Positions 17,934 through 52,122 of a stretch of DNA of 57,047 nucleotides are shown here, one piece after another. This stretch comes from Gammaproteobacteria bacterium. Lineage in GTDB: Bacteria; Pseudomonadota; Gammaproteobacteria; SZUA-21. The DNA lies in assembly GCA_003233345.1 (NCBI GenBank), contig QILK01000102.1, positions 1 to 57,047 of the forward strand. The letters are read 5' to 3'. The notes below the pieces were generated by a model. It was given only the letters and a program-made list of their open reading frames with translations, was not told where the DNA came from and made no database searches. Each line of letters opens with the position of its first letter. Position 1 is the stretch's first letter. Made by a program: the position numbers and the translations under genes.

Positions 17934-18010
<77 letters not shown>

Positions 18011-18093
18011 GTAACTCCTGGGTGCATTGTGGACACATGGTTTACATGTTTGTACCAGAGACTTAATTTGGGGCTGTTATCCTTTTTAGCAGC

Positions 18094-18189: not shown

Positions 18190-18259
18190 TACCATTGAAT
18201 TTTAGGAAAAGCCTAAAAATATCTCACAAAAAAGAATAAAAATGTTAAACACACTGGAA

Positions 18260-18359: not shown

Positions 18360-18660
18360 CTCCCTAAAATCACCAAAATATCAGTTATCACCAACATTAG
18401 ATTATGACAAATTTTTGCGCATTTTTGATTTTTTTTTCTAATAGCCAGTTTTCTGGTAATTTTTTTACAAAATTCAAGCGTTTTTTGACGACTAGGGTCT
18501 TCAAAGCAGTAATTAAAACGTGATAAAATTTACTTTAAGATTCAACTTATTATTACGGGTAGGAAATATAAGTTGTTGCAACATAAATATATTATCCTGA
18601 ATTCATAGGGACTCAGCGTTATTGGGTTTAGGTAAATTAATCAAATTCAAGGTTACTAAA

Positions 18661-19170
18661 ATGTTTAATAAACATACAATAAATATTAGCTTGTTATTAT
18701 TAGCGATGATATACGGAACAAATTCTTTTGCGGCGGGAGCAAGATTAGCATTTATAGATATGAGGAAAGCGATATTAGAATCAGCAACAAAGAAAAAAGC
18801 GGATGAAAGATTAAATAAAGAGTTTGGTAAGCAAGAATCACAGATCAAAGCCGATTCTAAAAAACTCAAAGAGTTAGCCGAAAAAGTAAAAAAATCGGGT
18901 CGTAAAAATATCGACGATTCCACCTTTAAGGCGCAGCAAACATTTGTAAAACTAAGAAGAAAGTTATTACGCGAGAAGCAAAGTTTTACCCGGCGATTAA
19001 AGAAAAGGCAGCTTGAGGAAAAGAAAAAAATCAATAAAAAAGTAATGGGTGCAATCGCGTCGGTTGCTAAAAAGGGTAACTATGATGTAGTCCTGGTCAA
19101 CAAAGGTATTATTTACAAAAGCGCAAGCGCAGATATTACCGATAAAGTAAAGGCTCTCATGGATAAGTGA
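18661..19170 (+). CDS. OmpH/Skp-family periplasmic chaperone, paralog 1
   Basis: Signal peptide (SFA-A), RLAFIDMRKAI, coiled coil, VAKKGNYDVVL, ADITDKV. ATG 18661 preferred over the listed 18622 start. Confidence 0.82.
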   Translation: MFNKHTINISLLLLAMIYGTNSFAAGARLAFIDMRKAILESATKKKADERLNKEFGKQESQIKADSKKLKELAEKVKKSGRKNIDDSTFKAQQTFVKLRRKLLREKQSFTRRLKKRQLEEKKKINKKVMGAIASVAKKGNYDVVLVNKGIIYKSASADITDKVKALMDK

Positions 19171-19236
19171 TGGGTTGGAACCTAAGTTGTCTATCGCAGA
19201 TGCTATTTTAACAAATTCAATTAAGGATCGCTCATT

Positions 19237-19725
19237 ATGTGGTTAAGTAATAAGTTTAAATTTATGTCATTTTTTTTACTGTTTACCTGCAGTGGATTAC
19301 TCTTGGCAGGAGAAACGCGTGTTGCAATAGTTAAACTAGAAAAACTTTTAGTTTCCAGTAAAATCGGAAAAGCAGCAAACCATAAATTAAAAAAAGAGTT
19401 TGGTGGCAGAGAAAAAAAACTTAAAGGAAAAAGAAAAAAACTCGGGGAAATGATGGCCAAAGCTAGAACCAAGAGGTCAGCTAAATATTTGGCTGAGGTC
19501 GAAAAATTTAAAAGTACACTTAAATCTGAGCAGAAAATATTTATCATTGAATATAAAACCCGACGTGCCCAGGAAATGAATAAAATCAAGACTAAAGTAA
19601 AAAAGGTGATTAACTCATTTGGAAAAAAAGAGAAGTATGATCTGATATTGTATACCGGGATTGTCTATAATAATAAGGGTATAGACATCACCGACAAAGT
19701 AAGAGCGGCGTTGGATAAAAATTAG
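19237..19725 (+). CDS. OmpH/Skp-family periplasmic chaperone, paralog 2
   Basis: Signal peptide, RVAIVKLEKLL, FGKKEKYDLIL, IDITDKV. Confidence 0.82.
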   Translation: MWLSNKFKFMSFFLLFTCSGLLLAGETRVAIVKLEKLLVSSKIGKAANHKLKKEFGGREKKLKGKRKKLGEMMAKARTKRSAKYLAEVEKFKSTLKSEQKIFIIEYKTRRAQEMNKIKTKVKKVINSFGKKEKYDLILYTGIVYNNKGIDITDKVRAALDKN

Positions 19726-19746
19726 TAAGTTAGTTGAATAATAAAG

Positions 19747-19768
19747 AAGGGGTTTTCGCCCCTTTTTT
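19747..19768 (+). terminator. Rho-independent terminator after the skp pair (probably bidirectional)
   Basis: AAGGGG-TTTTCG-CCCCTT followed by a T run and preceded by an A-rich run. Confidence 0.75.
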
Positions 19769-19793
19769 GTAACCCCCGGCCGTCAGTTCTGTT

Positions 19794-19985
19794 TTATGCT
19801 GTCTCAGTTAGAGATTCTGATAGCCAAGTAAATATTCCAGCAATGACGCCAACACTGGCACCAAGAATTGCGCCATATGTCCCCATAAATGCAGCACCAA
19901 CAACTGATGCCGAGGCAACAGCGAGCAAAATACCCGCAGGGTAGATAAGTGCTGGGCTTAAGGTTTCAATATTTTTTGTGTTCAT
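19794..19985 (-). CDS. Small hydrophobic membrane protein (63 aa)
   Basis: ATG at 19985 with a GGAGAG RBS. Two Gly/Ala-rich TM segments (MNTKNIETLSPALIYPAGILLAV...). Confidence 0.6.
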   Translation of the reverse strand: MNTKNIETLSPALIYPAGILLAVASASVVGAAFMGTYGAILGASVGVIAGIFTWLSESLTETA

Positions 19986-20147
19986 AATTACTCTCCTGTT
20001 GATCTTGCTAATGAGTCGGCAGTTAGTCACTAAAGGTTCAACTTTACTAAAAATTCCAGTAATAAATGTGCAGGTGTTTGCTATAATGTTTTGAAAATTT
20101 GTGCAATTTCCAATGACACAGGTAACAAAACCAAGTATTTGTTTCAA

Positions 20148-33555: not shown

Positions 33556-36038
<2,483 letters not shown>

Positions 36039-36042
36039 GAGC

Positions 36043-36068
36043 GGGGACACGATAAGTTAGTAATCTAA
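36043..36068. repeat. Family B half-arm immediately after the kdsA stop
   Basis: GGGGACACGATAAGTTAGTAATCTAA, a degenerate left arm. Confidence 0.7.
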
Positions 36069-36478
36069 CAGATCTTCACAAAATTCGTCTGATTTTGAGC
36101 CAAATCGGAGATCTGTCGAAAAGCGGTAACTAAGTCTTTCGACAAAAAAATCTGACCAGCGACTGTTTTTAACAACCCAGTAATACTCGTACCAAAATCC
36201 ATTTTTTATTTTTTCTATCGATAATACTAGGAGGCCAAGTTAGTTATGATTGGTAATTTCAAAATATTGGAATATATTTTTGCGTGTCTATTTAAGAACC
36301 CATCTATACACTGTTGTATAAAAAACATCAAAGGTTTTACTAAAAAATACTCGTAAAAAAATTTGCGAAATCCCGTATGTCAGTGATAAAATTGTGTTAC
36401 TTCTGCGGTAATAAAATGACCTAAATAAAAACCGTACTCTACCACTCAGCTATATACTAAGTATATGTATACTAATAT

Positions 36479-39388
36479 ATGTCAAAAAGAAAACTGTACA
36501 CAGTTGCAATCATCACCAGTGCCATAATCATCTTTTTTGTTACTTTTCCTGAACTAAAGATAAAGACAGCAGAAAAACCCGTGCCTTTTCAAAAACTTTT
36601 AAAGGTTGATCAGAAAACCATGGCAATGTGGGTTAGGCGAATGAAAAATTTGTCACGGGGCCCATTTTCCCGAATTCGCTGGTTTTGCAGGGATGGAACG
36701 ATTCTTGAGCCAGGCCCCTATGCTTGCTCAAAACACGGTGGTGGCGTGCAACATGGTGAGTGGACCTTGGAAATAAAATCCATGCGTGCAGAAGGTTACC
36801 TATTGGCAAATATATTAGTCAAGGTTGATCCTGTGAAATTAACAACCACAAACAAGGGTCACCGGGAACTCACGCAGATACTACTGGAAAAATTTCTGAT
36901 TGCAATTGATGACGGTTGGATCTTTCGCCAGGCGCGACACTATCGCGGCAGCTTGCATGACGAGTCTGAGAATAAAGCGGCCAGAAAAATTCTGCTTGAC
37001 TTACTCGACAATACAAACTCAGGTATTCGAAATTATCTGTTGTTGCGCAGTGCCGTACGCTGGTTACCTCACACGACCACTACACCCTTGGTAACCGATA
37101 TTCGGCAAATGTCGACGGAGTTGTTTAAGAACGATCCGTCATTCGAGCCGTTGCGCAATAAACTACACACTTTACCGGATGCCAGAGACGCAAAACGAGT
37201 ACGCGATTATGCAGAAAAATACAGGGTCGCGTTGAATTCAAGCCAGTATTCTGAGTTAGCAGGGAAAATCGATAAGTTATACAAATCGGATGATATTGAT
37301 GAACGATTACCGGGTTTATTCGACCTGCTTGAAAACCACGAGCAGGTGTCAAAACCCCACAAGAAAAAGATACAAAAGAGTAAAAAAGCATTAACTAAAC
37401 GCAAGAATAATGAAAAGCGCTTTATCGCTTACAGCCAGCTACTAGCTTATCTTCGACACTATTTAAAATTGTTTGGCAATTCAACCGAACAGCTATCCGT
37501 ACTGGATCACAGTCTCGCGATTGAGCGTTCGACTTTTGCCACGGGCACAGCACTTTTACAAAAACTCGGATATACAAGTAAACGTAAGCGCTTGCGCTGG
37601 CTGGCAGCATCAAATAACGCACTCTACGGTATTGGGTTGCTAACGCAACGTCAGTACAATGAGGTTGATGAGACAATCGTGCGCTTAAGCAAAGGCAGGG
37701 TTTCCTTCGCTGATTACCGCAAGGAATTACGTTATCTTTCACGGGTACCCGCATGGGCCCATCGACGGATGCGATTTCACTACGCACAGTCGATTAATGT
37801 ACTAACTCGAATAGAACCCAAGGCACAAATATTTATACCGGAGCAGCTGCGGGGTAGTGTGCTGCTGGTCTATACATCCGTTCTGGATAGCCTGGTCAAA
37901 GATGCGGATCGTAGAGCCGGGGTCAGTAATAATTTGTTTGGTACTTCGGTGGGCATGGGGTTAAGAGCACTAAACCCTGGAGTGGCAAGAGGTGTATTAC
38001 GCATACCCGGCAAAAACGAGTCTCCAGAATCATTTAAAGCGGATGGGATCTATCTTTTGCCTGCAACCACTGAAAAATTAAGTCGAGTTGCTGGCATATT
38101 GACGTTAGGCGAAGGCAATGCACTATCACATGTACAGCTTTTGGCGGCCAATCTGGGCATTCCAAATGTTGTTGTTGACAGGAAACTACTATCAAGCTTC
38201 CAGGCCAATGTCGGAAAACGTGTGGTATTGATAGTAAAACCCGACGGGTCGGTGCAACTGGAAGCCGATGGGCCGCAATGGGACACCGTTTTTAAAAAAG
38301 TACGCACTAAAAAAGACTCTGTCATTAAACCAAACTTGCACAAGCTTAACCTGTCTCAGCGTCACTTACTGCGCCTGAAACAGTTACGTGCCAGTGATTC
38401 CGGACGTATCGCTGGCCCTAAAGCCAGTAATTTGGGCGAACTAAAATATCATTTTCCCAATCAGGTAGCCGATGGTATTGTGATTCCATTTGGTGTTTTT
38501 CGTCAGTTACTGAATCAGGAAATGGAAACGGATGGCCCAACCGTTTTCCAATGGATTCAGAAACAACACAAAATGATTCGTGCGATGCCTGAGGGACAGG
38601 CCAGAGCAAAAGCGGAAAAAAGATTTCTGAAAAAATTAAGCAAGTGGATACGATACGCAGACCCAGGTAATCAATTTCGGAAAAAACTTAAGGTAAAATT
38701 GCGTCAAGTATTTGGTAAAAATCGTAGCTATTCTCTGTTTGTCCGCAGCGATACCAATATTGAAGACCTGCCGAACTTTACCGGAGCCGGGTTAAATTTA
38801 ACGGTGCCAAACGTTAAGGGTTTTAATAAAATACTGGATGCCATTTCCCGTGTTTGGGCATCGCCGTTTACCAACCGAGCTTATTCGTGGCGACAAAAAC
38901 ATATGGACAAACCAGAACATGTTTATGTGTCCATACTTTTAATGAGAACCGTGCCTGTCAATAAATCAGGCGTAATGGTGACCATGGACGTACAAACAGG
39001 TGACAAGAACTGGTTGTCGATCGCGACTAATGAAGGTATCGGTGGTGTTGTCTCGGGTCAATCAGCGGAGGAACTACGCGTAAATGTTAATACAGGCAAG
39101 GTTAGACTGATTTCAGAGTCGACATCAACCTTTCGTAACGTGCCCAATGATGGCGGCGGGCTCAAAAAAGTACCCGTGCATGGAAAGAAAAAAATATTGA
39201 CAAAACCGGAGCTGAACCAGTTACTACGCCTAAAGAAAACATTGTCGAAGAAATTTCCGCTGGTAGATGCGCAAGGAAAAGAAGTGCCGGTTGATGTGGA
39301 ATTCGGATTTCATAATGGAAACTTGGCGCTGTTTCAAATACGGCCCTATGTACGTAGTAAACACGCAAAGAAAAAATCAGGAAAATAA
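36479..39388 (+). CDS. Putative exported dikinase-like protein: large N-terminal domain + phospho-His swivel domain + C-terminal PPDK/PEP-synthase-type nucleotide-binding (ATP-grasp) domain
   Basis: N-terminal MSKRK plus a hydrophobic helix; GILTLGEGNALSHVQLLAANLGIP (swivel, His551); GPKASNLGEL, VRSDTNIEDLPNFTGAG, VWASPFT, SGVMVT, DVEFGF...FQIRP. No PEP/pyruvate TIM barrel. Confidence 0.8.
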   Translation: MSKRKLYTVAIITSAIIIFFVTFPELKIKTAEKPVPFQKLLKVDQKTMAMWVRRMKNLSRGPFSRIRWFCRDGTILEPGPYACSKHGGGVQHGEWTLEIKSMRAEGYLLANILVKVDPVKLTTTNKGHRELTQILLEKFLIAIDDGWIFRQARHYRGSLHDESENKAARKILLDLLDNTNSGIRNYLLLRSAVRWLPHTTTTPLVTDIRQMSTELFKNDPSFEPLRNKLHTLPDARDAKRVRDYAEKYRVALNSSQYSELAGKIDKLYKSDDIDERLPGLFDLLENHEQVSKPHKKKIQKSKKALTKRKNNEKRFIAYSQLLAYLRHYLKLFGNSTEQLSVLDHSLAIERSTFATGTALLQKLGYTSKRKRLRWLAASNNALYGIGLLTQRQYNEVDETIVRLSKGRVSFADYRKELRYLSRVPAWAHRRMRFHYAQSINVLTRIEPKAQIFIPEQLRGSVLLVYTSVLDSLVKDADRRAGVSNNLFGTSVGMGLRALNPGVARGVLRIPGKNESPESFKADGIYLLPATTEKLSRVAGILTLGEGNALSHVQLLAANLGIPNVVVDRKLLSSFQANVGKRVVLIVKPDGSVQLEADGPQWDTVFKKVRTKKDSVIKPNLHKLNLSQRHLLRLKQLRASDSGRIAGPKASNLGELKYHFPNQVADGIVIPFGVFRQLLNQEMETDGPTVFQWIQKQHKMIRAMPEGQARAKAEKRFLKKLSKWIRYADPGNQFRKKLKVKLRQVFGKNRSYSLFVRSDTNIEDLPNFTGAGLNLTVPNVKGFNKILDAISRVWASPFTNRAYSWRQKHMDKPEHVYVSILLMRTVPVNKSGVMVTMDVQTGDKNWLSIATNEGIGGVVSGQSAEELRVNVNTGKVRLISESTSTFRNVPNDGGGLKKVPVHGKKKILTKPELNQLLRLKKTLSKKFPLVDAQGKEVPVDVEFGFHNGNLALFQIRPYVRSKHAKKKSGK

Positions 39389-39402
39389 GGGAGATTAAAT
39401 CA

Positions 39403-40662
39403 ATGCGAACTTTGCTTACCGTGATCACGACGGTATTTTTTTCATGTGCAACATGGGCCTATCCTCTGGACGGATATAACTATACCGGCATCAAACGACT
39501 GGAAGGTTACCGCCTTGTGCAGAAAAAAAAGATACGCGGTAATTTTGTACCCCGTGGCAGCCGTATGAAAATGCGAAATGTCAGACTACGCTTACATAAC
39601 AACAATTTTGAGCTGCCAAAGACTGATCCGGTTTTTACAAAAAAAATCGTCGATCTTTTGGGTGAGGATAAAGACAAGTATGGTATTGCCATCCTTGATC
39701 TGAGTCGATTAGACAAGATCGCTTATGCAGAATATAACGCAAACAGGCATATCACCCCTGCGAGTGTCGGCAAGGTCGCTGTGGTGACCGCAATATTCAA
39801 TGAATTAGCAAAACACTATCCAGGCGATACCGGTTCGAGAGAACGTATATTACGAACGGCGACCGTTACTGCTGATCGATTTATCAAACGGGATACTCAT
39901 CAGGTACCGTTTTGGGAGAAGGGCCAGAAAGAGGTGTCCTATCGGGAACTGCGCATTGGCGATAAGGCCAGCTTGTGGACCTTTATGGACTGGATGTTAT
40001 CGGCCAGTTCAAATGCGGCAGCGTCGATGGTTGTTAAAAACGCGATTTTGCTAAATCATTTTGGTAAGCGTTATCCGGTGGATGATAAGCAAACCGCGAT
40101 TTTTTTTAACGAGACACCGAAAAAGTCACTCACACAGATATTTCAGCGTTCAATGACAGAGGGTTTAAAAAAGAGTGGTATAAACACAGCGAAGTTTCGG
40201 CAAGGTAGTTTTTTTACGCGTGGTGGTAAAAATGCTGTACCAGGTTTTGGAAGCAGGGCGACTGCGCGTGAACTTATGCGATATTTATTGTACCTGGAGC
40301 AGGGCAGAATAATCGATGTCTTTAGCAGTCGTGAGATCAAGCGTTTACTGTATATGACTCAGGGCCGCATTCGTTACGCGTCCCATGCCGTACTGGATAA
40401 ATCTGCGCTATATTTCAAATCAGGATCGATCTATCGATGTCATACGGATAAAAAAAAGCCCTGTAAAAAATATCAAGGCAATAAGCTTAATATTTTGAAT
40501 TCAATAGCGATTATAGAAACACCCGCTCGTAAAAGGCCGAAATTATTTTATATGGTTGTGGTGACATCAAATATACTAAACAAGCACTCGCCGACCGAGC
40601 ATCATAATCTGGCACTTAAGGTGCATCGACTAATCCAACAGAGATATCGTGACAACCGATGA
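39403..40662 (+). CDS. Exported serine hydrolase, class A beta-lactamase/PBP-like fold
   Basis: Signal peptide (TWA-Y); SxxK = SVGK (Ser121), SxN = SSN, K(T/S)G = KSG. Confidence 0.82.
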   Translation: MRTLLTVITTVFFSCATWAYPLDGYNYTGIKRLEGYRLVQKKKIRGNFVPRGSRMKMRNVRLRLHNNNFELPKTDPVFTKKIVDLLGEDKDKYGIAILDLSRLDKIAYAEYNANRHITPASVGKVAVVTAIFNELAKHYPGDTGSRERILRTATVTADRFIKRDTHQVPFWEKGQKEVSYRELRIGDKASLWTFMDWMLSASSNAAASMVVKNAILLNHFGKRYPVDDKQTAIFFNETPKKSLTQIFQRSMTEGLKKSGINTAKFRQGSFFTRGGKNAVPGFGSRATARELMRYLLYLEQGRIIDVFSSREIKRLLYMTQGRIRYASHAVLDKSALYFKSGSIYRCHTDKKKPCKKYQGNKLNILNSIAIIETPARKRPKLFYMVVVTSNILNKHSPTEHHNLALKVHRLIQQRYRDNR

Positions 40663-41562
40663 TGAAGAGAACGGCACAATGCGGACATGACGATGGGTAA
40701 TTAGATGGTCCATTTCAACGATTAAACGTCTCAACCAGTTGTCACCCTCTTTGTTATAAGCCAAAGCCACAGCAATATATCGATTGCCGTTACGTTCAAC
40801 GATTGCACTGTCTGCGTGGAAAGTTTTCCAGGTACCAGACTTCCTATAAATTTTTGAGCCTGGCTCGTGTGTATTAAGGCCATTGACAAACTTATGGTCA
40901 AAATCAGACCTGGCCAACGTGGCTTTCATTTTAGATGATAATTTGCGGGAAAGTAAACGTCCCGTTTGCAACATATAGTAGAAACGAGCCACCTGAAAGA
41001 CAGTTGCACCGTGCGACAGGTTATTCAGTGGGTCACGTCTCCAAGCAGCCGCCTTGCCATATTCCTTGCCCACCCACAATCCACCATTGAATGCCGGGTC
41101 GTAAAAGCGGTAAGGTTTGGACCGTAATAACCGGGCCAGATATTCTTTGCCTATGCGATTAAGGATACGGGTAGCGGCTGGATTAGATGAATAGCGAATC
41201 ATTTGTATTATTTCTTTACGCATGGCGCGATTCAGTTTTATCTCACCATTCTCAATCCGTTTAAACACACCAAACAGAATTGCAATTTTGGGTAAGCTTG
41301 CCGCATACATCATATGATTTGCGTTAATGGCTGCGATTCTGGGGTTATCGATTTCGGTGATGTCCACCAGCGCGACGCTTAACTGACCCAGATTAGCCGC
41401 ATGACGAAGCCCCAGTTTGTCGATTGACTTTTCAAGTCCTTGTTGAAGTTTGCTATCATAGCTATTGGCCAGCTTGGGAAAATTGCTTTCAGCAAAAGCT
41501 GTCGTAGTCGCAATAGAGGACACAACGGGAATGATGACAAAATGCAAAATATGTTTAAGCAT
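40630..41562 (-). CDS. Exported serine hydrolase, class A beta-lactamase-like
   Basis: Signal peptide (AFA-E); SLPK, SSN and KSG motifs. Start 41562 or 41583. Confidence 0.85.
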   Translation of the reverse strand: MLKHILHFVIIPVVSSIATTTAFAESNFPKLANSYDSKLQQGLEKSIDKLGLRHAANLGQLSVALVDITEIDNPRIAAINANHMMYAASLPKIAILFGVFKRIENGEIKLNRAMRKEIIQMIRYSSNPAATRILNRIGKEYLARLLRSKPYRFYDPAFNGGLWVGKEYGKAAAWRRDPLNNLSHGATVFQVARFYYMLQTGRLLSRKLSSKMKATLARSDFDHKFVNGLNTHEPGSKIYRKSGTWKTFHADSAIVERNGNRYIAVALAYNKEGDNWLRRLIVEMDHLITHRHVRIVPFSSSSVVTISLLD

Positions 41563-41615
41563 TGAATGTATAAGTATAGACAAAGTTACCGCTTTTAAAC
41601 CAGTCTTAAAAAACT

Positions 41616-42866
41616 ATGTGTAATCGATTATCTGCCGACAACAGCCCTGATTTGTCCAGGGTTTTTTTACGTTCAATATTATTGTTTGCCAATTTTTTCC
41701 TGATCATCATGGCGCTATATCATCTAAAACCGGCCAGTCGATCATTAATTCTGGAATCCCATGGTTCGAGCGCTTTACCTTACATCTGGATTGGCTCAGC
41801 GTTATCTTTATTGATTATCATTTCTATCTATCATCATATTCTAAATCGTTTCGGTCGTCTTCAAGTAGTACTGGGTACCTGTTTGACCTTTTGTATTTTT
41901 TTGATCTTGTTCCGTCTGATGTTAATCAGTACTGGAAAATTTGCACCCGTCGCGTTTTATATCTTTGTCGACATACTGGGTGTCATACTGGTTGAGCAGT
42001 TTTGGAGCCTGGCCAACAGTGTTTATAGTACAGAAGAAGGTAAACGTTGGTATGGTATTGTGGGTACCGGCGGCCTTATTGGTGGTATGGTTGGCGGGGG
42101 TATCGCTGCGATGATTGTCAGTTTCACGCCGCTGCAGACGCCAGATTTATTATTGGTTGCCGTTTTGATTATTGCTGCCACCTTTGCATTGACCATCAAA
42201 ATGGCACGAATGGGCCTATATATTCAGGCAGAAATTCACGCGGCGAAGATTAACAGTCATGGTGGCTGGCAAGCACTGTTTCAAAGTCATTATCTGGTTT
42301 TGATCGCCGGTGCATTATTAATTGCACAATTGGTGTCACCACTTGTCGAATATCAGTTTTTGAGAATGATTGAAGGTCTGTATCCAGATCGCGAGGAACG
42401 AACGGCGGTTCTATCAGTATTTTTCAGTATTCTCAGCGGCGTATCCATTGCTGTCAACCTTGTTCTGACGCCATTGGTATTACGTTACGTCGGTGTGTTG
42501 GCAGGCCTTCTGACACAACCCCTTATATTGGCCACCGCTACCTACGGGTTTTTGAGTTACCCCGGATTGTTATCCGCAGCGACCATGAAAATCAGCGATC
42601 GGGGTTTGTCCTATTCGATAAACCGTGCAGCCAAAGAACTGCTCTATATACCCGTCGATCCGACTATCATATACCAGGCAAAAGCCTGGATAGACATGTT
42701 TGGCTACCGCATATTTAAAGTATTAGGCTCGATGCTGATATTGTTACTGACTCAGTGGTCTAGCCTTGTGAAGGGTTATTTTGGACTAAGCGTTGTAATT
42801 ATTTTCGGATGTATGATTTGGGTGATGATCCTATTGGTTCTGCATAGGGAATATAAAAAATTATAA
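41616..42866 (+). CDS. Npt1/Npt2 (TLC, ATP/ADP translocase-like) nucleotide transporter, stand-alone
   Basis: About 11-12 TM; YHLKPASRSL, EQFWSLANS, EGKRWYG, LSYSINRAAKELLYIP, KAWIDMF. Confidence 0.8.
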   Translation: MCNRLSADNSPDLSRVFLRSILLFANFFLIIMALYHLKPASRSLILESHGSSALPYIWIGSALSLLIIISIYHHILNRFGRLQVVLGTCLTFCIFLILFRLMLISTGKFAPVAFYIFVDILGVILVEQFWSLANSVYSTEEGKRWYGIVGTGGLIGGMVGGGIAAMIVSFTPLQTPDLLLVAVLIIAATFALTIKMARMGLYIQAEIHAAKINSHGGWQALFQSHYLVLIAGALLIAQLVSPLVEYQFLRMIEGLYPDREERTAVLSVFFSILSGVSIAVNLVLTPLVLRYVGVLAGLLTQPLILATATYGFLSYPGLLSAATMKISDRGLSYSINRAAKELLYIPVDPTIIYQAKAWIDMFGYRIFKVLGSMLILLLTQWSSLVKGYFGLSVVIIFGCMIWVMILLVLHREYKKL

Positions 42867-43102
42867 TACGATTGAAAAAGATGAGTCGTTAGAGGTCCCT
42901 GCGAACCGATTATAAGGAAAAAGACAAGGTTAGCTTAGGACTAAGAGACCATGGGGAAAATAGTAAAAGAGGGAGGTGTGATTTGTATGGCGGAGCACCT
43001 GTTACCTTTAACAGAAAAAACAGCGGTAATCCCGATTGGGTTGCTTTAAAAAGTAAATTTTCCGGCTGGCTGGCATAGGTCTCATTGGGGGACACTGCAA
43101 GC

Positions 43103-43732
43103 CTATTTTTTTGGTATTTTAGTATTGCTTTCGATTTGTAAGATTTTATTTCTTAGGTTAACTGCACCGACACAAGCAGCGCCTTTGGGGTCAGATGTGC
43201 AAACTTTCTTAAGTGTCGACAGTGCTAAATCTGTGTTTTGTTTAACCCCAATACCTTGATAGATATTTAGCGCATTCATAGTACATGCCCAAGGATCATT
43301 CCGTTCGCATGCTGTTTTAAATGTACGGGCTGCGCAGGTTTGCTTTGCTTTATCTTTTCCTGCGTATTTCATAATTCCAGCAGCGCGGTTGGTACAACCT
43401 GATGTAACGCCCAGTTTGCAAGAACGCTGATAAAGCGCTTCTGAAACCACATTGTCTAATTTATTTTCCTGGACAGCTCTTGCTAACGCGTAACAGGCAT
43501 TGCCATCATCTTTTTTACACTTATTAATGCACCACTTCATATCTGCTTTACATTTTTCTGGCCCATAACTTAATTTAGTCTCGTGCTTGGGGGTAATATC
43601 CGCAGGACATTGTTGATATGGAAATAGCCATCCCGGTTTTTTCCTAAGTTCTGCCAGTGAAGTTTCTTTCTCACTTGCTCCAATTGCTGGCACAAATATA
43701 ATAGCGAGTATTAAAATCAGTAATTTATTCAT
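43103..43732 (-). CDS. Secreted cysteine-rich Sel1-like/Hcp-type repeat protein
   Basis: Signal peptide MNKLLILILAIIFVPAIGA; 12 Cys including C-x7-C pairs (CKKDDGNAC, CKLGVTSGC, CERNDPWAC); GIGVKQN. Confidence 0.75.
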   Translation of the reverse strand: MNKLLILILAIIFVPAIGASEKETSLAELRKKPGWLFPYQQCPADITPKHETKLSYGPEKCKADMKWCINKCKKDDGNACYALARAVQENKLDNVVSEALYQRSCKLGVTSGCTNRAAGIMKYAGKDKAKQTCAARTFKTACERNDPWACTMNALNIYQGIGVKQNTDLALSTLKKVCTSDPKGAACVGAVNLRNKILQIESNTKIPKK

Positions 43733-44017
43733 AGCTTTGCCGTACAAATTTAATTGTTGAAAATATATCATATTTTAGAATAGCGAGGACGCCAAGACAA
43801 CCAGCAAATTAAAGCGCATAAATAACTTGGTTAAAAGTTATAATAGGCTCATCATTAATATGAATAATTCGAGATCGATACACTTGTCCAGAAACCCTTG
43901 TAATAGACGTTTTGGAACTGGATTTTCCGAGAGAAGAGATAGATACTATATTAAAAGAAGTAGCAAAGGGTTTACTTCCGCTATCGTAAACGGCGAGTCA
44001 AGAGCATTCGCTGCTAA

Positions 44018-45322
<1,305 letters not shown>

Positions 45323-47116: not shown

Positions 47117-48295
47117 ATGGCATTACGATATATACCTGTCGGCGTAAAACTGGTTTCAATATCAATAGTAGCTTGTACCGTCATATTAGCGTTTGGTCTA
47201 TACGCTATGTTTAGCGGTGATGTAAAAAATGGCGTGGATTATCTTATAGCCGCTTGTGTCGCTAGTGCTGTTTTGCTCGCGTATACCGGGTATATATATC
47301 AAGTCATTGTCGGACCAATTAAAAATTTAAAATTTGTCGTTGATGAAATTTGTAAGTCCTCCGATTTTGGTAAACGAATAACGGTTCGTAGCAACGATGA
47401 AATCGGTCAGACCTGTTTTACACTTAATAAATTGCTTGGTGAGTTGGGCAATATGGTAGAACAATTTTCGTCAGTGACCACCAATATTTCCGAGTCAATT
47501 ACCAGTTTTTCCGGCAATAATGACAAGGCAATAAATGATATGCAGAAGCATCTCACTGAAACCGAGCAGGTTGCGACGGCGATGACAGAAATGACCTCGA
47601 CAGTTCAGGAGGTGGCAAAAAATGCAGCAGAAGCATCCACCGCCGCAAAAGAAGCCGACAAGCAGGCCGAACATGGAAATAAAGTGGTGGCCGAAGTGAT
47701 TGATGCCATAAAAATACTGGCAGGTGAAGTGCAAAAAACGGCGAATGATATTAATACGGTGGCCAGCGAAACCGATAATATTGGCTCCGTGCTAGATGTT
47801 ATTCGCGGTATCGCCGAACAGACTAATTTACTGGCACTCAATGCCGCGATCGAAGCGGCTCGAGCAGGCGAGCAAGGCCGCGGGTTTGCCGTGGTTGCCG
47901 ACGAAGTACGGACACTTGCGAGCCGCACGCAGCAATCGACACAAGAAATTCAGGATATGATAGAGCGTTTGCAGTCAGGTGTAAAAAATGCGGTGGTGGC
48001 GATGGACCGTGGTCGTACGCAGGCGACAGACAGTGTGCAAAAAGCTGAGATTGCCGGTGAGTCATTGATCAAGATCAATAATGCCGTGGCAACGATTAAT
48101 GATATGAACCTGCAAATTGCCAGTGCTTCTGAAGAGCAAAGTGCCGTTGCTGAAGAAATTAGTAAAAGTGTCTCTTCGATTCAGGAAATTTCCGAAATTA
48201 ATGCAGAAGGCTCCAGTCGAGTGACTGAAACCAGTCTTGAGCTTCGCGGTCTTTCCGGTGGATTGCAGGATCTGATCGGGAAATATAAACATTAA
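47117..48295 (+). CDS. Methyl-accepting chemotaxis protein with no periplasmic sensor domain
   Basis: TM1, a loop of about 8 aa, TM2, HAMP (NDEIGQ), and the signalling hairpin [34 protein letters not shown]. Confidence 0.93.
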
Positions 48296-48299
48296 GAGT

Positions 48300-48447
48300 A
48301 ACACTGATAAGTTTTAATTACATAAACCTTCAGGTTATTAACGTATCAGATGAAGCCTTTTATTGCACTAGGTGTCAACACTATTAACATAAATACAATC
48401 AACATTCAGGTGAATTTCCACTAATTTGCTAACTGATCAGTGTCCCC
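48300..48447. repeat. Degenerate family B copy plus right half-arm at the island junction
   Basis: ACACTGATAAGTTTTAATTAC...GTTATTAACGTATCAG (48300-48350) and CTAACTGATCAGTGTCCCC (48429-48447). Confidence 0.7.
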
Positions 48448-48457
48448 AAAGATCTAT

Positions 48458-49447
48458 TTAAATAAGGTTATGCTTACGATCATACTTTATTAAAGTATTT
48501 TTGACATTTATTAGTAGCTGTGATATTTCTTGCTCATTGGGAAACCTGTCACCAAAAACCATGTCTTTAAAAGAATCACTGTGTATCGCTTTTATTAAAA
48601 TTGGAACGATATTGTCAAGCTTACGAAATAAAGGCGCATGACTTAAAGGCTTTTCAAGCCAGTTTTTATCCATCTTTCCAGGAATATTTTTCTCTGATCC
48701 AACTACTGCATGGATTAATTCAATAATATCTTGTGAATCCAAATAATTTTTATAAATATCAAAACGCAGTATAAGCGCAATATCATATATGTGCCTAATT
48801 TTATTAGTCAGCACTAGCTCATAAGAAGCGTTGTAACTATGTTTAATCAAACCCATTAATTTTTCAACAAGTGTTCTTTCCACATCTAATACAGAGACCA
48901 AAAACGGATGCAAACTATATTCTTCAATGAGTTTTTCTTGGTTTTTATCAAGTAAATATTCGCCAATGTATGAATTAATAGTTTGTTTTGAATAAGGCGT
49001 TGGTAGCGTAAAAGAATTGACCTCTATTAATATTGTATCCTTAATATCACCATAGTTATTACTGCTTGTTACTTTGGGATAGTCATAAACTGTTTTACGA
49101 AAAACTGATCCTTTTGACTCTAGTTTATGATTTTTATGATAGGTTAAACCTAATGTAACAGTTTTTTCCGTTTTTTTTAAAAGTTTTTTGATCTGATTAC
49201 CGGATTGTTCAATATTTAACACTGCCAAATCGACGTCCTCAGAAAAGCGATTTATTATTTTATGCGCTTTAGACAGAGAGGTTCCGCCCTTAAATACAAT
49301 TTCGTTAGAGATGTCAGATTCGGACAATTGTTTTAATGCCCTGGTAACCCAATAGTCTTTTTCGATATAGACGGCAGGAAGATTTAAATCACTAGCCGTT
49401 TCCCTCAGCAAGGGTTTAAATACATCTATATACTCGTGTAAAATCAT
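48458..49447 (-). CDS. AbiEii-family nucleotidyltransferase toxin (type IV TA)
   Basis: IEKDYWV, VFKGGTSLSK, RFSEDVDL, ERTLVEK, RHIYD. Start 49447 (ATGA overlap with the antitoxin stop) or 49459. Confidence 0.92.
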   Translation of the reverse strand: MILHEYIDVFKPLLRETASDLNLPAVYIEKDYWVTRALKQLSESDISNEIVFKGGTSLSKAHKIINRFSEDVDLAVLNIEQSGNQIKKLLKKTEKTVTLGLTYHKNHKLESKGSVFRKTVYDYPKVTSSNNYGDIKDTILIEVNSFTLPTPYSKQTINSYIGEYLLDKNQEKLIEEYSLHPFLVSVLDVERTLVEKLMGLIKHSYNASYELVLTNKIRHIYDIALILRFDIYKNYLDSQDIIELIHAVVGSEKNIPGKMDKNWLEKPLSHAPLFRKLDNIVPILIKAIHSDSFKDMVFGDRFPNEQEISQLLINVKNTLIKYDRKHNLI

Positions 49448-50172
49448 ACTATATTCCATTTATATTTTTCGCGCCAATCAGCATCACCGATTGCAAGTTT
49501 AAAGGTAGTCAATGGGTTTAATGATTTTTTTAATAGTGACAATATATCTATCTCAATCTTCGACAAGATTAGTCCCAAGACTGCTATTGTTGCTGGATTA
49601 TAGTAGGATGCCGCAATTTTTTGTATTTTAGAGATATCGGATTTACCTAACATATCTATTTCTAACACGATTTGGCTAAGCACCTGCTCACCTGTAGTAT
49701 CGGGGATTTTTTGAAAGTTACGAAGTACATCAAGGTATTGCAGCAATATTACATTTGCTTTATTAATAGGTGCGCGAGATCTTACAAATCTTATCTGAAA
49801 ATCACCAAAATCAAGTTTTGGACGTATGCGTTCCATTGCAATGGTAGTTACCATAGGTACTTGTGTTGTTAATCCTAATTCATTATATAGGCGTGCACCA
49901 GTAATATAGCCAATCTGTTTTGTACCGCGATATATAATCGATTGTAATATCTCATCACTCGATGGATTTAATGTCGGCTGTGTTATGCCCTTTTCTGGTA
50001 TATAGTACTGGCCTTTTGAAAATCGCTTTAGTTTGTTTTCTTTAACCAAACGACTGAGCGTGCGCGAAACCGCCTTTGGTGAGGCTTTCGCAGACACCAG
50101 ATCAAGATACCCAAACAATTTGCCAGGTGCGAGCTGTGCTATTTCGGCTATGACTTTTTTGGCGATACTCAT
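49444..50172 (-). CDS. AbiEi-family (DUF6088-like) wHTH antitoxin
   Basis: N-terminal wHTH (AVSRTLSRLVKE...RFSKGQYYIP), GYITGARLYNELGLTTQVP. ATG at 50172 has a GAGG RBS. Confidence 0.85.
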   Translation of the reverse strand: MSIAKKVIAEIAQLAPGKLFGYLDLVSAKASPKAVSRTLSRLVKENKLKRFSKGQYYIPEKGITQPTLNPSSDEILQSIIYRGTKQIGYITGARLYNELGLTTQVPMVTTIAMERIRPKLDFGDFQIRFVRSRAPINKANVILLQYLDVLRNFQKIPDTTGEQVLSQIVLEIDMLGKSDISKIQKIAASYYNPATIAVLGLILSKIEIDILSLLKKSLNPLTTFKLAIGDADWREKYKWNIV

Positions 50173-50211
50173 TGTGTTACCTCTTTTATATAGGCCAAAG
50201 TATAATACATA

Positions 50212-50240
50212 TATTAAAATACAACCAGTATATTTTAATA
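50212..50240. promoter_or_regulatory. Inverted repeat upstream of abiEi, candidate autoregulatory operator
   Basis: TATTAAAATA-N9-TATTTTAATA located 40-68 bp upstream of the antitoxin start. The region is AT-rich, so a chance match is possible. Confidence 0.45.
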
Positions 50241-50559
50241 AAAACAAGACATAAAATGCTTAACATAATGTATTATATACATTAAATTAAATACGTACAA
50301 TATATGTTTAATTAGTATGCCGATGGTAGAAACGCGGGTTTCAGGTGGTCTCTGTCGGAGAGTGATAAAGTATCATACTGAGAATGGCGATTATTAGGCC
50401 TAATTACCTCTATGTTTTTACGTTGGGATAGGCTGCGGAACTGCTGTCATCCTAAAGCTGACTTTTAAGCTATAATTTTGAGGATCTGGTTCATCGACTC
50501 AAAGCGGACATTTAGATTTTTCTAACTTATGTTAGCTATAAATTAAAGGAGTAAATATT

Positions 50560-51549
50560 ATGGGGTGGAAAGGAGCGGTTCGCTCAATTGGGGCAGCGGT
50601 TCGCGCTACGGAAAGAGATGCAAAGCGACGCCAACGCGAACTTGACAAACAACAAAAGCAATATGAAAAAATGCAAGCATTGGAACAAGCTGCATACGCA
50701 GTAGAAGTATACGAGAATGATATTGAAGTAATTCAATCCATTCATAAAGAATGCAGTAATCCAATCGACTGGGAAATAGTTGCTAAGTCACAAGAGCCCA
50801 AAAAGCCAAGCAACTTAAAGAACAATGAAAAAGTAGCAAGATCAAAAATGGATAATTACAAGCCTGGCTTTATTGATAAAATTTTTAAGAGAGAAGAAAA
50901 GAAGAGAATCTCACATAGTGAAAATACTGTAAGCGCAATTGAAGAGGATAAAGCCGAGTATAAAAAAAATATACGTAGCTGGGAAAAAAATATTAGTGAC
51001 TGGAAAGAAAGTGTTTTGCTTGCTCAACTTCTTCTTAATGGCGATGAAGATGCTAAAATAAGAGCAATTGAAGAACTGGATCCGTTCTCTGAAATTTCAA
51101 ACTTGGGCTCTAATTTAACAATATCTGTTAACGAAAGTAGTTTAATTGAAGCAACAATTCATATTCATGGAAATGATATTGTTCCAAGCGAAGTTAAAAG
51201 CCTGCTGAAAAGTGGCAAGCTATCTGTAAAAAATATGCCAAATGGAAAGTTTAACGAAATTTATCAAGACTATGTATGTAGTTGTGTATTAAGAGTCGCA
51301 AATGAACTGTTTTCTGCAATTCCAGATAATATGGTTATTGTAACTGCTGTCGATGAATTATTAAGTACTAAAACTGGCCACTTAGAAAAATCCCCAATAT
51401 TATCTGTTTGTGTGTCACGTAGTACATTAGAATCATTTAATATGAACAATATTGACCCATCTGATTCAATGAGTAATTTTATTCATAATATGTCGTTTAA
51501 AAAAACAAAAGGTTTTGAACCCGTGGAATTAGCAAGGCCACCATCATAG
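50560..51549 (+). CDS. Hypothetical coiled-coil protein resembling the non-catalytic part of DUF4236/Mrr-associated proteins
   Basis: AAGGAG RBS; charged N-terminal coiled coil; C-terminal YQDYVCSCVLRVANELF...TGH...ILSV...IDPSD. Confidence 0.6.
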   Translation: MGWKGAVRSIGAAVRATERDAKRRQRELDKQQKQYEKMQALEQAAYAVEVYENDIEVIQSIHKECSNPIDWEIVAKSQEPKKPSNLKNNEKVARSKMDNYKPGFIDKIFKREEKKRISHSENTVSAIEEDKAEYKKNIRSWEKNISDWKESVLLAQLLLNGDEDAKIRAIEELDPFSEISNLGSNLTISVNESSLIEATIHIHGNDIVPSEVKSLLKSGKLSVKNMPNGKFNEIYQDYVCSCVLRVANELFSAIPDNMVIVTAVDELLSTKTGHLEKSPILSVCVSRSTLESFNMNNIDPSDSMSNFIHNMSFKKTKGFEPVELARPPS

Positions 51550-51848
51550 GCTTGATAATGATCTAAATAAAAACAGCTTACTATAAAATTAACGTGGATA
51601 AATACAGTGTTGCTTCACTGCTTTATTTTACCGATTATTAAAAATGCCAAATGTCTGTATATAAACACTGCTGTTACTCCACGTTTACGTGCATGATAGT
51701 CTTAGACACACACAAAAAACATTCAAATTTATGACCCATTTTTGTCTAGAGCATTCACTTTGGACCGTGGAATGATGTTTAGTTTTGCATTTCGATTTCC
51801 AAGTCGATAAGCTTTATTGATGTTCAATTACAAATAGTGGCGCCATCG

Positions 51849-52122
51849 ATGACCCAATCGCGTAGCGAAGCGATCAACCTCGATTTCACTCCTTACTATC
51901 ATTGTATTAGTCGATGTGTACGCAGGCGTTTTTATGTGGCCAGGATCACTGCACTGGTCAGTCCTTTGCGCACCGAAGACAATGGATTGTGGATTTGATC
52001 AAGGAGTTGTCAGATTTCGTATTATTTTTCATGTGGACCGTGAAAGATGCTTAAAGCTGTCGGGTCATGAAGTAATCGAACGTTGGTTTCTTTTCCATAA
52101 AGGCGTCCATTTCCATCGATAG
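51849..52122 (+). pseudogene. REP-associated tyrosine (HUH/Y1, RAYT-type) transposase remnant
   Basis: Three frames join to MTQSRSEAINLDFTPYYHCISRCVRR / AFLCGQDHCTGQSFAHRRQWIVDLIKELSD / FHVDRERCLKLSGHEVIERW. The HUH segment (about AYAVMSNHxH) is deleted and the C-terminus is absent. Confidence 0.85.

Follow-up and report, generated by a model that had tools for sequence, protein, structure and literature searches.

The window analysed here is a stretch of 57,047 nucleotides in which kdsA, ending at position 36038, and eno, starting at 44033, are separated by a gap of 7,994 bp holding five open reading frames, which we call A to E. Gene A (36479-39388, + strand, 969 aa) is followed after 14 bp by gene B (39403-40662, +, 419 aa). 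Gene C (40630-41583, -, 317 aa when counted from a TTG; its start is probably the ATG at 41562) is convergent with B, the two 3' ends overlapping by 33 bp, and divergent from gene D (41616-42866, +, 416 aa), while gene E also lies on the minus strand (ORF 43103-43771, probable start 43732). The coordinates agree with an earlier note on this DNA, whose end coordinate is the probable start of E and which had described a five-gene gap of about 8 kb with A and B co-oriented, B and C convergent, and C and D divergent; the four N-terminal export signals that it assigned to A, B, C, and E are likewise visible in the window sequence and recur across homologues. These genes have thousands of homologues, so chance does not account for the gene content.

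The first 24 residues of A (36479..36550, +) are read as a signal peptide or signal anchor, in which an 18-residue hydrophobic core comes after MSKRK. No clear AxA cleavage site is present in the window copy, which may therefore persist as a membrane anchor. A hydrophobic signal core is found in 90 of the 93 A homologues with a complete N-terminus, and the homologues listed begin with positive charges and have AxA-type sites some 20 residues ahead of the conserved mature N-terminus; inspected by eye, these N-termini are classic Sec signals. A is thus predicted to be exported by a Sec signal, with its body on the extracytoplasmic side, as the earlier note had proposed. All named lineages among 80 listed loci are Gram-negative, so that a periplasm is present in each. 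Full-length A homologues (~940 aa counted from just before the N-terminal motif) contain 0-5 cysteines, mostly 2-3, and C70 and C83 are invariant in a 24-sequence alignment.

Behind the signal, A appears to be an intact His-swivel/ATP-grasp dikinase, that is, a water-dikinase-type phosphotransferase, with an all-alpha domain at residues ~45-480, a phosphohistidine swivel domain at ~484-600, and an ATP-grasp domain at ~640-966 (AF2 model of the whole protein, pLDDT 81). The ATP-grasp domain (38396..39376, +) matches Pfam PPDK_N over residues 644-966 (2.7e-32) with its invariant columns, aligns at residue level with PEP synthases, keeps its nucleotide and Mg motifs intact (VRSDTN.EDLP, FTGAGLN.T, SGVMVT.D, D.EF, and FQ.RP), and in Foldseek matches the rifampin phosphotransferase (RPH) structure 5hv1 at 1e-13, with a TM score of 0.84-0.86 on the target. 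The Pfam match of the swivel domain to the PEP-utilizers mobile domain (residues 526-566) reaches 19.5 bits, just below the 23.1 cut-off, and the A profile aligns to PEP synthase 8a8e over both the His and ATP domains, the stretch around His551 falling on the catalytic His region. His551 (codon 38129..38131, +; motif GEGNALSHVQLLA) is the predicted phosphocarrier, the invariant histidine of the swivel domain, and had already been picked out in the earlier note as a candidate for autophosphorylation; all 24 aligned sequences keep both S550 and H551. The same L-S-H context surrounds the catalytic histidine of potato GWD1 (L990/H992; PMC13553574).

The all-alpha domain (36611..37918, +), presumed to bind the acceptor, holds the invariant C70 and C83 and the motif GPF.RIRWFC.DG...C..HGGG.QHGEW. 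Its longer form, RGPF.RIRWFC.DG...AC..HGGG.QHGEW, is the signature given in the earlier note; no other stretch of the A family is as well conserved, and the locus-finding tool selected it as its search pattern. The domain is modelled by AF2 with a pLDDT of 80, finds no fold match among PDB structures (best E 0.38), and has no sequence match in Pfam, NCBIfam, or PDB. Of 720 clusters at 50% identity, the 150 with the best scores all have it N-terminal, in proteins no longer than ~1,050 aa, and it appears to be restricted to the A family.

A reading of A as a PEP synthase was rejected, the GWD-like order of all-alpha, His, and ATP-binding domains giving the best fit. The order in A is that of the central, His, and ATP domains forming the catalytic core of StGWD1, within the GWD1/PWD enzymes of plants and algae: an all-alpha region of ~440 residues that runs straight into the His domain, with the ATP-binding domain C-terminal and, in both, nearest to RPH and PPDK. 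By analogy the expected reaction would be ATP + acceptor + H2O -> AMP + acceptor-P + Pi, and GWD, too, partners hydrolases on an insoluble polymer. For the acceptor domains the likeness is one of order, as the GWD central-domain structures 9HA9 and 9QVI are not among the Foldseek results; moreover, A lacks the CBM45/CBM20 starch-binding modules, has a Sec signal where GWD works inside plastids, and probably has an acceptor other than alpha-glucan. RPH, PEP synthase, and PPDK share with A the ATP-grasp domain and the swivelling phosphohistidine domain, but in a permuted order with the ATP domain first; they are cytoplasmic, whereas A is predicted to be exported, and A has neither the PEP/pyruvate TIM barrel nor the rifampin-binding domain and scores far under all NCBIfam equivalog cut-offs.

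B and C are both predicted to be intact exported SxxK acyl-serine enzymes, in agreement with the two such enzymes claimed earlier for the window. B matches Pfam Beta-lactamase2 at 28.6 bits (cut-off 22), as do 17 of 17 B homologues, and C matches the same family at 67.6 bits, above the cut-off. Invariant in B are S121-x-x-K124, S202-S-N204, K339-S-G341, and the pair C346/C354, and in C S96-x-x-K99, S132-x-N134, and K248-S-G250. The signal of B ends in ATWA, with conserved cleavage before YPLDG, and that of C in TAFA ahead of ESN; signal peptides recur across both families. By profile comparison (hhalign, probability 97%, E 2.4e-11), B and C are distant paralogues. With PBP-A (Tll2115), one of the class A beta-lactamase-like low-molecular-weight DD-peptidases, the two share the Beta-lactamase2 fold, the SxxK/SxN/KSG motifs, and export, but similarity in sequence is very low: PBP-A (2j7v) is the best solved relative of C, at a weak E of 0.003, and B finds no match to it. 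B further differs from PBP-A-type enzymes in that its N-terminus is extended by ~80 residues, it has insertions within the chain, and it carries a conserved, predicted disulfide pair; it also has weak Peptidase_S13 matches. Both proteins lie far below the cut-off for class A beta-lactamases (17 bits against 200). One subtype of the cassette has a PG_binding_1 domain fused to B (E 1e-11 to 3e-15); a custom HMM finds the fusion in 12 loci, an indication that the envelope substrate is peptidoglycan.

D, which the earlier note had placed in the Npt/TLC family, scores 71.4 bits against Pfam TLC (cut-off 21) and belongs to this TLC/NTT (ATP:ADP antiporter) family of inner-membrane carriers. In a hydropathy scan it shows 11 transmembrane segments and a likely twelfth in residues 306-360, giving the ~12 segments of Rickettsia Tlc1, Chlamydia Npt1, and plastid NTT1. 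Among solved structures, the D family profile finds the ADP/ATP carriers 9j3n (3.8e-18) and 9j3j (3.3e-12), and D homologues carry automatic names such as Npt1/Npt2 or AAA ATP:ADP antiporter. Compared with the canonical NTP/NDP exchangers, D is ~80 residues shorter and reaches only 54.7 bits against the NCBIfam cut-off of 387 (TIGR00769), comes from free-living bacteria, and shows an additional, weak MFS_1 match. To our knowledge, TLC is the sole transporter family that moves ATP across bacterial membranes. Characterised TLC carriers import ATP against ADP (+ Pi), whereas the flow proposed for D is outward, to feed a periplasmic enzyme and not to take up ATP from a host.

The genes A to D make up a single conserved cassette, which occurs in hundreds of free-living bacteria; our literature search found no paper on this cassette. 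Relatives of A are encoded in 343 species genomes, of sulfur-cycling Gammaproteobacteria, Methylococcales, Desulfobacterales, Nitrospirota, and others, and by tblastn the exact gene order of the window, here termed canonical, is present in 32 of 55 loci. Desulfonema ishimotonii and two unrelated metagenome contigs show this order as well. Partners were counted with profile HMMs in the 52 loci with sufficient flank: 48 have a TLC-family gene (47 by profile HMM and one truncated by the locus edge; the other four have none within 10 kb), and 50 have B- or C-type genes, so that co-occurrence extends well beyond this genome, its rarity having been named earlier as grounds for discarding the system. 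Where the D orthologue is absent, another TLC paralogue stands in the locus, in five cases a long NTT-HEAT-type fusion of 730-890 aa (Pfam-confirmed in the loci L042 and L063), and replacement of D by a transporter of another family was never seen in the loci compared. The pairwise-identity matrices of the four proteins correlate with r = 0.85-0.94; the genes co-evolve and are inherited together, while the flanks of the cassette are unrelated across phyla. Among these loci we found no fifth conserved gene. The five-gene system of the earlier note accordingly shrinks to four: gene E (43103..43732, -), for an Hcp-like, cysteine-rich Sel1-like-repeat protein with a predicted export signal (AIGA ahead of SEKE), has homologues in none of 83 related loci and is a local neighbour outside the cassette. 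E has no Pfam match at E <= 1, and its matches among PDB sequences are Helicobacter HcpC (1ouv, 1.3e-13) and HcpB (1klx, 1.5e-4).

The best explanation of these observations is that A-B-C-D make up one extracytoplasmic module. How it might work is a matter of inference as regards ATP export, the acceptor of A, and the role of B and C. In the reading that we favour, whose chances we judge to be about evenly balanced, D feeds ATP to the periplasmic dikinase A, which acts on peptidoglycan alongside B and C. Through D, ATP or some other nucleotide would pass from the cytoplasm to the periplasm; A would transfer the beta-phosphate of ATP to His551, releasing AMP and Pi, and its His domain would then swing to the all-alpha domain, where the acceptor would be phosphorylated. 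This acceptor would most likely be a part of peptidoglycan, either a sugar hydroxyl, on the analogy of GWD, or a group of the stem peptide, and B and C, being DD-peptidase-like, might cleave the peptide moiety of that polymer or transfer it. Phosphorylation could mark or open the wall for B and C, or shield it from other enzymes. Several points count against this scheme. The dikinase would yield AMP and Pi, and not the ADP against which characterised TLC carriers exchange ATP; ATP in the periplasm is expected to leak through porins; and we know of no ATP-derived phosphorylated peptidoglycan in Gram-negative bacteria, nor of any wall phosphorylation of the proposed kind. The low NCBIfam score and shortness of D, the four loci lacking a TLC gene within 10 kb, and the weak match of C to PBP-A also tell against it. 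As the acceptor domain of A has no recognisable relative, its substrate is deduced from the partner proteins only.

Some of the same observations might be read differently. D could instead move a substrate or product of the pathway, as in the import of phosphorylated muropeptides or the salvage of AMP or adenosine, with the phosphoryl donor of A coming from elsewhere. We consider this unlikely, though the divergence and shortness of D, its score below the NTP/NDP cut-off, and its MFS_1 match are in its favour, a dikinase releasing AMP and Pi would require salvage, and the roles of NTTs in free-living bacteria are, as Major et al. 2017 stress, still unknown (PMC5381601). Against it, D keeps the signature stretches of its family in alignment with the solved ADP/ATP carriers and is substituted always by TLC paralogues, and an exported ATP-grasp enzyme requires extracytoplasmic nucleotide, which no other member of the cassette could provide. 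The operation might also run in reverse: with an external high-energy phosphate compound as donor, A would use AMP and Pi to form periplasmic ATP, which D would import for scavenging or energy harvest. The known TLC carriers are indeed importers, some organisms run the PPDK and PEP synthase reactions in either direction, and the host lineages come from sediments and sulfidic habitats. This seems very improbable to us, because A lacks the PEP/pyruvate-binding TIM-barrel domain, no plausible external donor is known, and B, C, and the PG-binding fusion would be left without a role.

If A phosphorylated a drug, in the manner of rifampin phosphotransferase, while B and C acted as beta-lactamase-type hydrolases, the cassette would inactivate periplasmic antibiotics or xenobiotics. 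We think this improbable: rifampin phosphotransferases are the nearest solved structures to the ATP domain of A, and B and C have the predicted fold and motifs of class A beta-lactamases, but the partial match of A to NCBIfam RIF_Ptrans_rph (83 bits against a cut-off of 999) is confined to the shared ATP domain, the acceptor domain is unlike the rifampin-binding domain and the domains follow another order, B and C fall short of the class A cut-off, the PG_binding_1 fusion indicates the wall and not a soluble drug, and the cassette is co-evolving in environmental anaerobes and sulfur oxidisers. Nor do we give much weight to A as a protein phosphotransferase like PTS enzyme I, passing phosphate to a partner such as B or C and so switching wall enzymes. 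The close spacing of A and B (14 bp in the window; a median of about -2 bp in the 32 canonical loci, start-codon choice being approximate), the PEP-utilizers swivel domain common to A and enzyme I, and a helical domain large enough to serve for docking speak for it, but known ATP-grasp members all phosphorylate small molecules or glycans and not proteins, and, beyond their catalytic motifs, B and C show no sign of a conserved His, Ser, or Thr that could accept phosphate. That the genes are mere neighbours, or that the hydrophobic stretch of A is not an export signal and A is cytoplasmic, is scarcely credible, even with the missing AxA site of the window copy, given the textbook signals of the listed homologues and a cassette kept across phyla amid unrelated flanks by co-evolving proteins; the comparative data contradict it.

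Our preferred reading of a nucleotide-fed wall module has a parallel in logic in the O-acetylation of peptidoglycan by PatA/PatB/Ape1 of Gram-negative bacteria, where a donor group crosses the inner membrane via a membrane protein, the wall is modified by a transferase in the periplasm, and hydrolases of the same compartment process the altered polymer. The proteins of the two systems come from unrelated families, and the donor there is an acetyl group as against ATP. The periplasm is usually said to lack ATP, and the A-B-C-D cassette suggests that ATP-driven chemistry may nevertheless take place at the cell wall.

The 7,994 bp between the end of kdsA (36038) and the start of eno (44033) hold five open reading frames: A (36479-39388, + strand, 969 aa), encoding a putative exported dikinase; B (39403-40662, + strand, 419 aa) and C (40630-41583, - strand, 317 aa), encoding putative exported SxxK enzymes; D (41616-42866, + strand, 416 aa), encoding a TLC-family carrier; and E (43103-43771, - strand), a cysteine-rich Hcp-like gene with a probable start at 43732, the end coordinate used in the earlier note on this region. 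A and B are spaced by 14 bp, C and D are divergent, and B and C are convergent with 3' ends that overlap by 33 bp (40630-40662). Open reading frames, strands, gaps and overlaps were checked in the window, and every structural detail of the earlier description holds. The earlier note, written from the sequence alone, had further proposed that all five genes form an ATP-fuelled periplasmic pathway, an interpretation that the comparative data support in part: the co-occurrence of A, B, C and D and the location of the dikinase stand, and the membership of E does not.

The order A>, B>, <C, D>, which we call the canonical cassette, was found with unrelated flanks in context look-ups around three distant homologues of A, one from the cultured bacterium Desulfonema ishimotonii and two from metagenome contigs. 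The D. ishimotonii protein is 45-46% identical to A of the window, and since this organism is in culture and carries the canonical cassette, the ideas developed here are directly testable. When genomes were scanned at one per species, 343 of them proved to encode a relative of A. Among the 80 loci listed, the named lineages are all Gram-negative and comprise Gammaproteobacteria (Ectothiorhodospiraceae, Methylococcales, Sedimenticolaceae, Thioalkalivibrio, Halothiobacillaceae, Thiohalobacterales and Granulosicoccaceae), Desulfobacterales, Syntrophobacterales and Nitrospirae, together with single bins of Spirochaetales and Hyphomicrobiales. The exact arrangement of the window recurs by tblastn in 32 of the 55 loci that extend 4.6 kb or more downstream. 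Profile HMMs applied to 52 loci with sufficient downstream flank place a TLC-family gene in 47 (in one more, L083, it is cut off at the locus edge) and B- or C-type genes in 50, a nearby TLC gene being absent in 4 of the 52; the association of the four families, on which the earlier proposal depended, thus extends well beyond this genome. Across 35 loci the pairwise-identity matrices of A, B, C and D correlate with r = 0.85-0.94, which indicates that the four genes have been inherited as a unit, and clustering of all ORFs in the related loci found no fifth widely conserved gene.

Where the orthologue of D is absent, another TLC paralogue occupies its place; substitution within a single family points to a need of the system for the TLC function as such. 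In five loci a long TLC-family ORF of 730-890 aa adjoins A (L042:15425-17668, L063:15809-18001, L055:7270-9465, L084:1242-3500 and L045:5223-7898); the two checked with Pfam, L042 and L063, combine TLC with HEAT repeats, weakly so in L063. Such NTT-HEAT fusions are widespread and of unknown function (Major et al. 2017, PMC5381601), and their occurrence beside the exported dikinase may be a clue to what they do. The antisense overlap of B and C is a conserved feature, since the stop-codon positions are exact: the convergent 3' ends overlap in 25 of the 32 canonical loci, by a median of 49 bp, which may reflect transcriptional coupling or a mutual limitation of the two genes. At its other end, C is annotated from the TTG at 41583; translation from the ATG at 41562 instead would give a signal peptide of usual length (MLKHILHF...TAFA|ES) and, judged against the homologues of C, is the better fit, in which case the C-D divergent spacer is 53 bp.

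E finds no Pfam match at E <= 1, the Sel1 model included, and phmmer aligns it to HcpC (1ouv, 1.3e-13 over two stretches) and HcpB (1klx, 1.5e-4), so that its assignment to the Hcp/Sel1 type in the earlier note was right; the protein is Hcp-like, with SLR repeats carrying paired cysteines, and exported (43103-43732, - strand). Its inclusion in the system does not survive comparison, since tblastn found no homologue in 83 related loci and the ORF clustering added no fifth gene, and we reject it as a cassette component. Hcp proteins of Helicobacter reportedly bind penicillin and derivatives of muramic acid, and in this genome it may be more than chance that E lies beside a wall-related cassette, though E is not conserved in other loci. 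Between them, the cassette and E split the kdsA-eno pair.

The export of A is a family property. Export calls for A, B and C were made with a hydrophobicity heuristic and by judging sequences by eye, and by these means a hydrophobic signal core was seen in 90 of the 93 A homologues with a complete N-terminus, as befits the extracytoplasmic dikinase of the earlier proposal. Positive n-regions and AxA-type sites are present in the 60 homologues listed, a twin-arginine motif is as a rule absent, and in a 24-sequence alignment a classic Sec signal, such as MKRLWVTGIIGLILVALVPGSVAAATPD, precedes the start of the conserved mature part by about 20 residues. The window protein differs from most homologues in that its N-terminus (36479-36550) consists of MSKRK followed by an 18-residue hydrophobic core with no good AxA-type cleavage site. 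This long core and the missing site mark it as a possible inner-membrane-anchored variant, and it may stay anchored with its body still facing outward, the homologues being otherwise predicted to be soluble periplasmic proteins.

An AF2 model of A (pLDDT 81) resolves an all-alpha domain (45-480) that includes a small hairpin with two cysteines, a His domain (484-600) and an ATP-grasp domain (640-960). The last matches Pfam PPDK_N (PF01326, residues 644-966, 2.7e-32, 112.8 bits against a cut-off of 27) and, in Foldseek, rifampin phosphotransferase (5hv1, 1e-13), PEP synthase (2ols) and HpeI, with a TM of 0.84-0.86 on the target against RPH and PEPS ATP domains; a Foldseek search with the whole model gave matches confined to this domain. 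The swivel domain matches PEP-utilizers (PF00391, residues 526-566) at 19.5 bits, slightly below the cut-off of 23.1, the same family is recorded for several homologues, and positions 475-555 of the A-family profile align to the His domain of PEP synthase 8a8e, the profile as a whole aligning its ATP and His domains to PEP synthase in permuted order. By these ATP-grasp and phosphohistidine domains A is assigned to the PEP-utilising/water-dikinase superfamily. In the 24-sequence alignment the ATP-domain motifs VRSDTN.EDLP, SGVMVT.D, D.EF and Q.RP are invariant, as are S550 and H551, and because the nucleotide/Mg motifs and the S550-H551 pair are all kept, A looks like an active dikinase. C70 and C83 are also invariant in this alignment; full-length homologues (~940 aa) contain 0-5 cysteines, mostly 2-3.

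Within the superfamily A fits none of the named enzymes, scoring far below every NCBIfam equivalog cut-off. It is not a PEP synthase or PPDK proper: Pfam and the AF2 model show no PEP/pyruvate-binding TIM barrel, the protein ending with the ATP-grasp domain, and the NCBIfam PEP synthase models reach at most 101 bits against cut-offs of 598-976. Nor is it a rifampin phosphotransferase, for which NF041857 gives 83 bits against a cut-off of 999, in the ATP domain only; that enzyme has the order ATP, rifampin-binding, His, whereas A has the order all-alpha, His, ATP, and the N-terminal domain of A has no Foldseek match to 5hv1. Modelled separately (AF2 pLDDT 80), the all-alpha domain found no fold match in the PDB by Foldseek (best E 0.38) and no Pfam or NCBIfam match, and its profile found nothing among PDB sequences, the best hit (E 0.09) being an unrelated protein. 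Among the best 150 of 720 clusters at 50% identity it is always N-terminal (start residues 1-78), in proteins of up to about 1,050 aa. The closest likeness in architecture is to GWD. A, as modelled, and StGWD1 share the order of an all-alpha or central domain, a His domain and a C-terminal ATP-binding domain, which in StGWD1 span 483-926 (20 helices), 931-1050 and 1069-1387 (PMC13553574), and the L-S-H context of the catalytic histidine is common to A and potato glucan, water dikinase. Unlike GWD, A has no CBM45 or CBM20 (no CBM by Pfam at E <= 0.01), its mature protein beginning about 20 residues ahead of the all-alpha domain. GWD entries are absent from the Foldseek matches of the N-terminal domain, for which the PDB library extends to April 2026; publication of the StGWD1 central-domain structures, 9HA9 (open form) and 9QVI (closed form), dates from August 2026. 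The dikinase call of the earlier note is thus upheld by the ATP-grasp and His domains and refined, by domain order, from a generic to a GWD-like enzyme.

D matches Pfam TLC (PF03219) at 71.4 bits against a cut-off of 21, with a weak match to MFS_1 as well, and shows by hydropathy 11 TM segments and a likely twelfth in residues 306-360. The D-family profile matches the solved ADP/ATP carriers 9j3n (3.8e-18) and 9j3j (3.3e-12), and homologues of D are automatically named Npt1/Npt2 or ATP:ADP antiporters. Against the model for canonical NTP/NDP exchangers, TIGR00769, it scores only 54.7 bits for a cut-off of 387.2, and canonical TLC/NTT carriers are some 80 residues longer. We therefore classify D as a divergent TLC subfamily and a putative nucleotide carrier. 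Numerous NTT homologues from free-living Gamma- and Deltaproteobacteria, their roles unknown, had been recorded in a 2017 survey of the family (PMC5381601).

B and C each match Pfam Beta-lactamase2 above its cut-off, and their SxxK-family motifs line up with one another (S121..K124, S202-S-N204 and K339-S-G341 in B; S96..K99, S132-x-N134 and K248-S-G250 in C), all of them invariant, so both are apparently active SxxK enzymes. An hhalign comparison (probability 97%, E 2.4e-11) identifies them as distant paralogues. The best solved relative of C is PBP-A (Tll2115) of Thermosynechococcus (E 0.003), and 4 of 17 B members have weak Peptidase_S13 matches. Neither is a true class A beta-lactamase by NCBI's criteria: the model bla_class_A gives C 17.2 bits, far below its cut-off of 200, with 8 of 19 C homologues matching at all, and gives no match to B. 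Signal peptides run throughout both families, that of B with predicted cleavage directly before an invariant YPLDG.

The best clue to the substrate of the cassette comes from a second subtype, in which B carries a C-terminal PG_binding_1 domain. This fusion is present in 12 related loci (L013, L022, L040, L043, L047, L048, L053, L064, L069, L073, L074 and L078); Pfam recovers it above cut-off in the seven checked (E 1e-11 to 3e-15), and the remaining copies were found with an HMM built from the Pfam-confirmed segments. At least 7 of the 12 loci carry a divergent TLC paralogue with about 25% identity to D, and in L047, L069 and L078 C lies upstream of A. The fusion places the system at peptidoglycan, one of the envelope substrates suggested in the earlier note.

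We infer the functional steps of the cassette from sequence, structure prediction and gene context. D would pass ATP into the periplasm, A would move the beta-phosphate of ATP by way of His551 to an acceptor in its helical domain with release of AMP and Pi, and B and C would process the peptide portion of that wall polymer. The example of starch suggests that phosphorylation might open or mark an insoluble polymer for the hydrolases; alternatively it might keep other enzymes from acting, in the manner of O-acetylation at C6 of MurNAc. That D supplies ATP, A phosphorylates, and B and C process the same wall polymer is in our judgement an even bet. It is rather doubtful that peptidoglycan itself is the phosphorylated acceptor, and equally tentative is the fuller reading in which a TLC carrier of free-living bacteria exports ATP and a GWD-like periplasmic dikinase phosphorylates peptidoglycan, so gating or re-energising two dedicated PBP-like enzymes; the site in that reading, taken together as either a sugar C6-OH or the activation of a stem-peptide carboxylate, is just as speculative. 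We know of no ATP-derived wall phosphate in Gram-negative bacteria.

Besides the lack of any known wall phosphate of this kind and the 4 of 52 loci with no TLC gene nearby, the picture of an ATP-supplied dikinase faces two further difficulties, namely that a dikinase yields AMP and Pi and known TLC carriers exchange ADP, and that ATP in the periplasm should leak through porins. D might instead move the substrate or the product of the pathway and not ATP, which we think fairly unlikely; the divergence of D from the canonical exchangers would fit this reading, and its profile matches to solved ADP/ATP carriers speak against it. The resemblance of the ATP domain of A to rifampin phosphotransferase and the beta-lactamase-type folds of B and C would suit a periplasmic module for drug inactivation, which we regard as improbable: it is weakened by the PG_binding_1 fusion of B, by an acceptor domain in A that is not RPH-like and by B and C scores far under the beta-lactamase cut-off. 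A defence-system reading is unsupported, as PADLOC matched none of the five proteins of the region.

A could also work as a protein phosphotransferase with B or C as its target, which we hold to be quite improbable, and the flow could run in reverse, with ATP made outside and then imported, which seems far-fetched. A cytoplasmic location of A is rejected on the signal peptides seen across the family, and the reading in which A is cytoplasmic or the genes are adjacent by chance, contradicted by the comparative data, is left with next to no probability.

To our knowledge, the textbook view is of a periplasm without ATP, in consequence of which known periplasmic modifications all use lipid-linked or otherwise pre-activated donors, and TLC is the only known family of ATP carriers. 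Here, an exported ATP-grasp dikinase and a TLC-family member share one widespread cassette. Each protein belongs to a known superfamily, the cassette as a system has no described counterpart, and literature searches within the library covered found no papers on it, on periplasmic dikinases, on an exported PPDK-family enzyme or on ATP export by a TLC carrier. If the ATP-supplied reading is true, certain bacteria purposely power chemistry in the periplasm with ATP, in an energy-coupled wall modification outside the cytoplasm; the starch-type logic of phosphorylating and then hydrolysing would reach bacterial envelopes, and a covalent modification new to the Gram-negative wall, a modification of peptidoglycan, may emerge together with new classes of PBP-like enzymes. 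It would also give a first function to the NTT/TLC carriers of free-living bacteria, a question left open by the 2017 survey (PMC5381601).

The kdsA-A spacer (36039-36478) is 440 bp long and AT-rich (GC 0.39 in the 1-kb bin 36001-37000) and contains several weak sigma-70-like matches, in a number not above chance. Scanned for promoters and terminators, the stretch 35.9-44.1 kb yielded no more sites than shuffled sequence did, so that these scans do not define the operon boundaries. Rfam and tRNA scans of the window found three tRNAs only, all outside the cassette region. GC content is 0.39-0.46 across that region and resembles the 0.42-0.47 of the flanks, giving no sign of a recent or foreign island; it is markedly lower (0.35-0.37, against 0.42-0.47 elsewhere) at 48001-52000, 18001-20000 and 1-1000. 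The window, which is a complete contig of 57,047 bp found in both NCBI and JGI, comes from a poorly sampled gammaproteobacterium: the TilS encoded in it is only 39-44% identical to its closest named relatives, which are gammaproteobacterial (Methylococcaceae, a Legionellaceae MAG and Nitrosococcus wardiae), and one metagenome fragment matches it at 95% identity.
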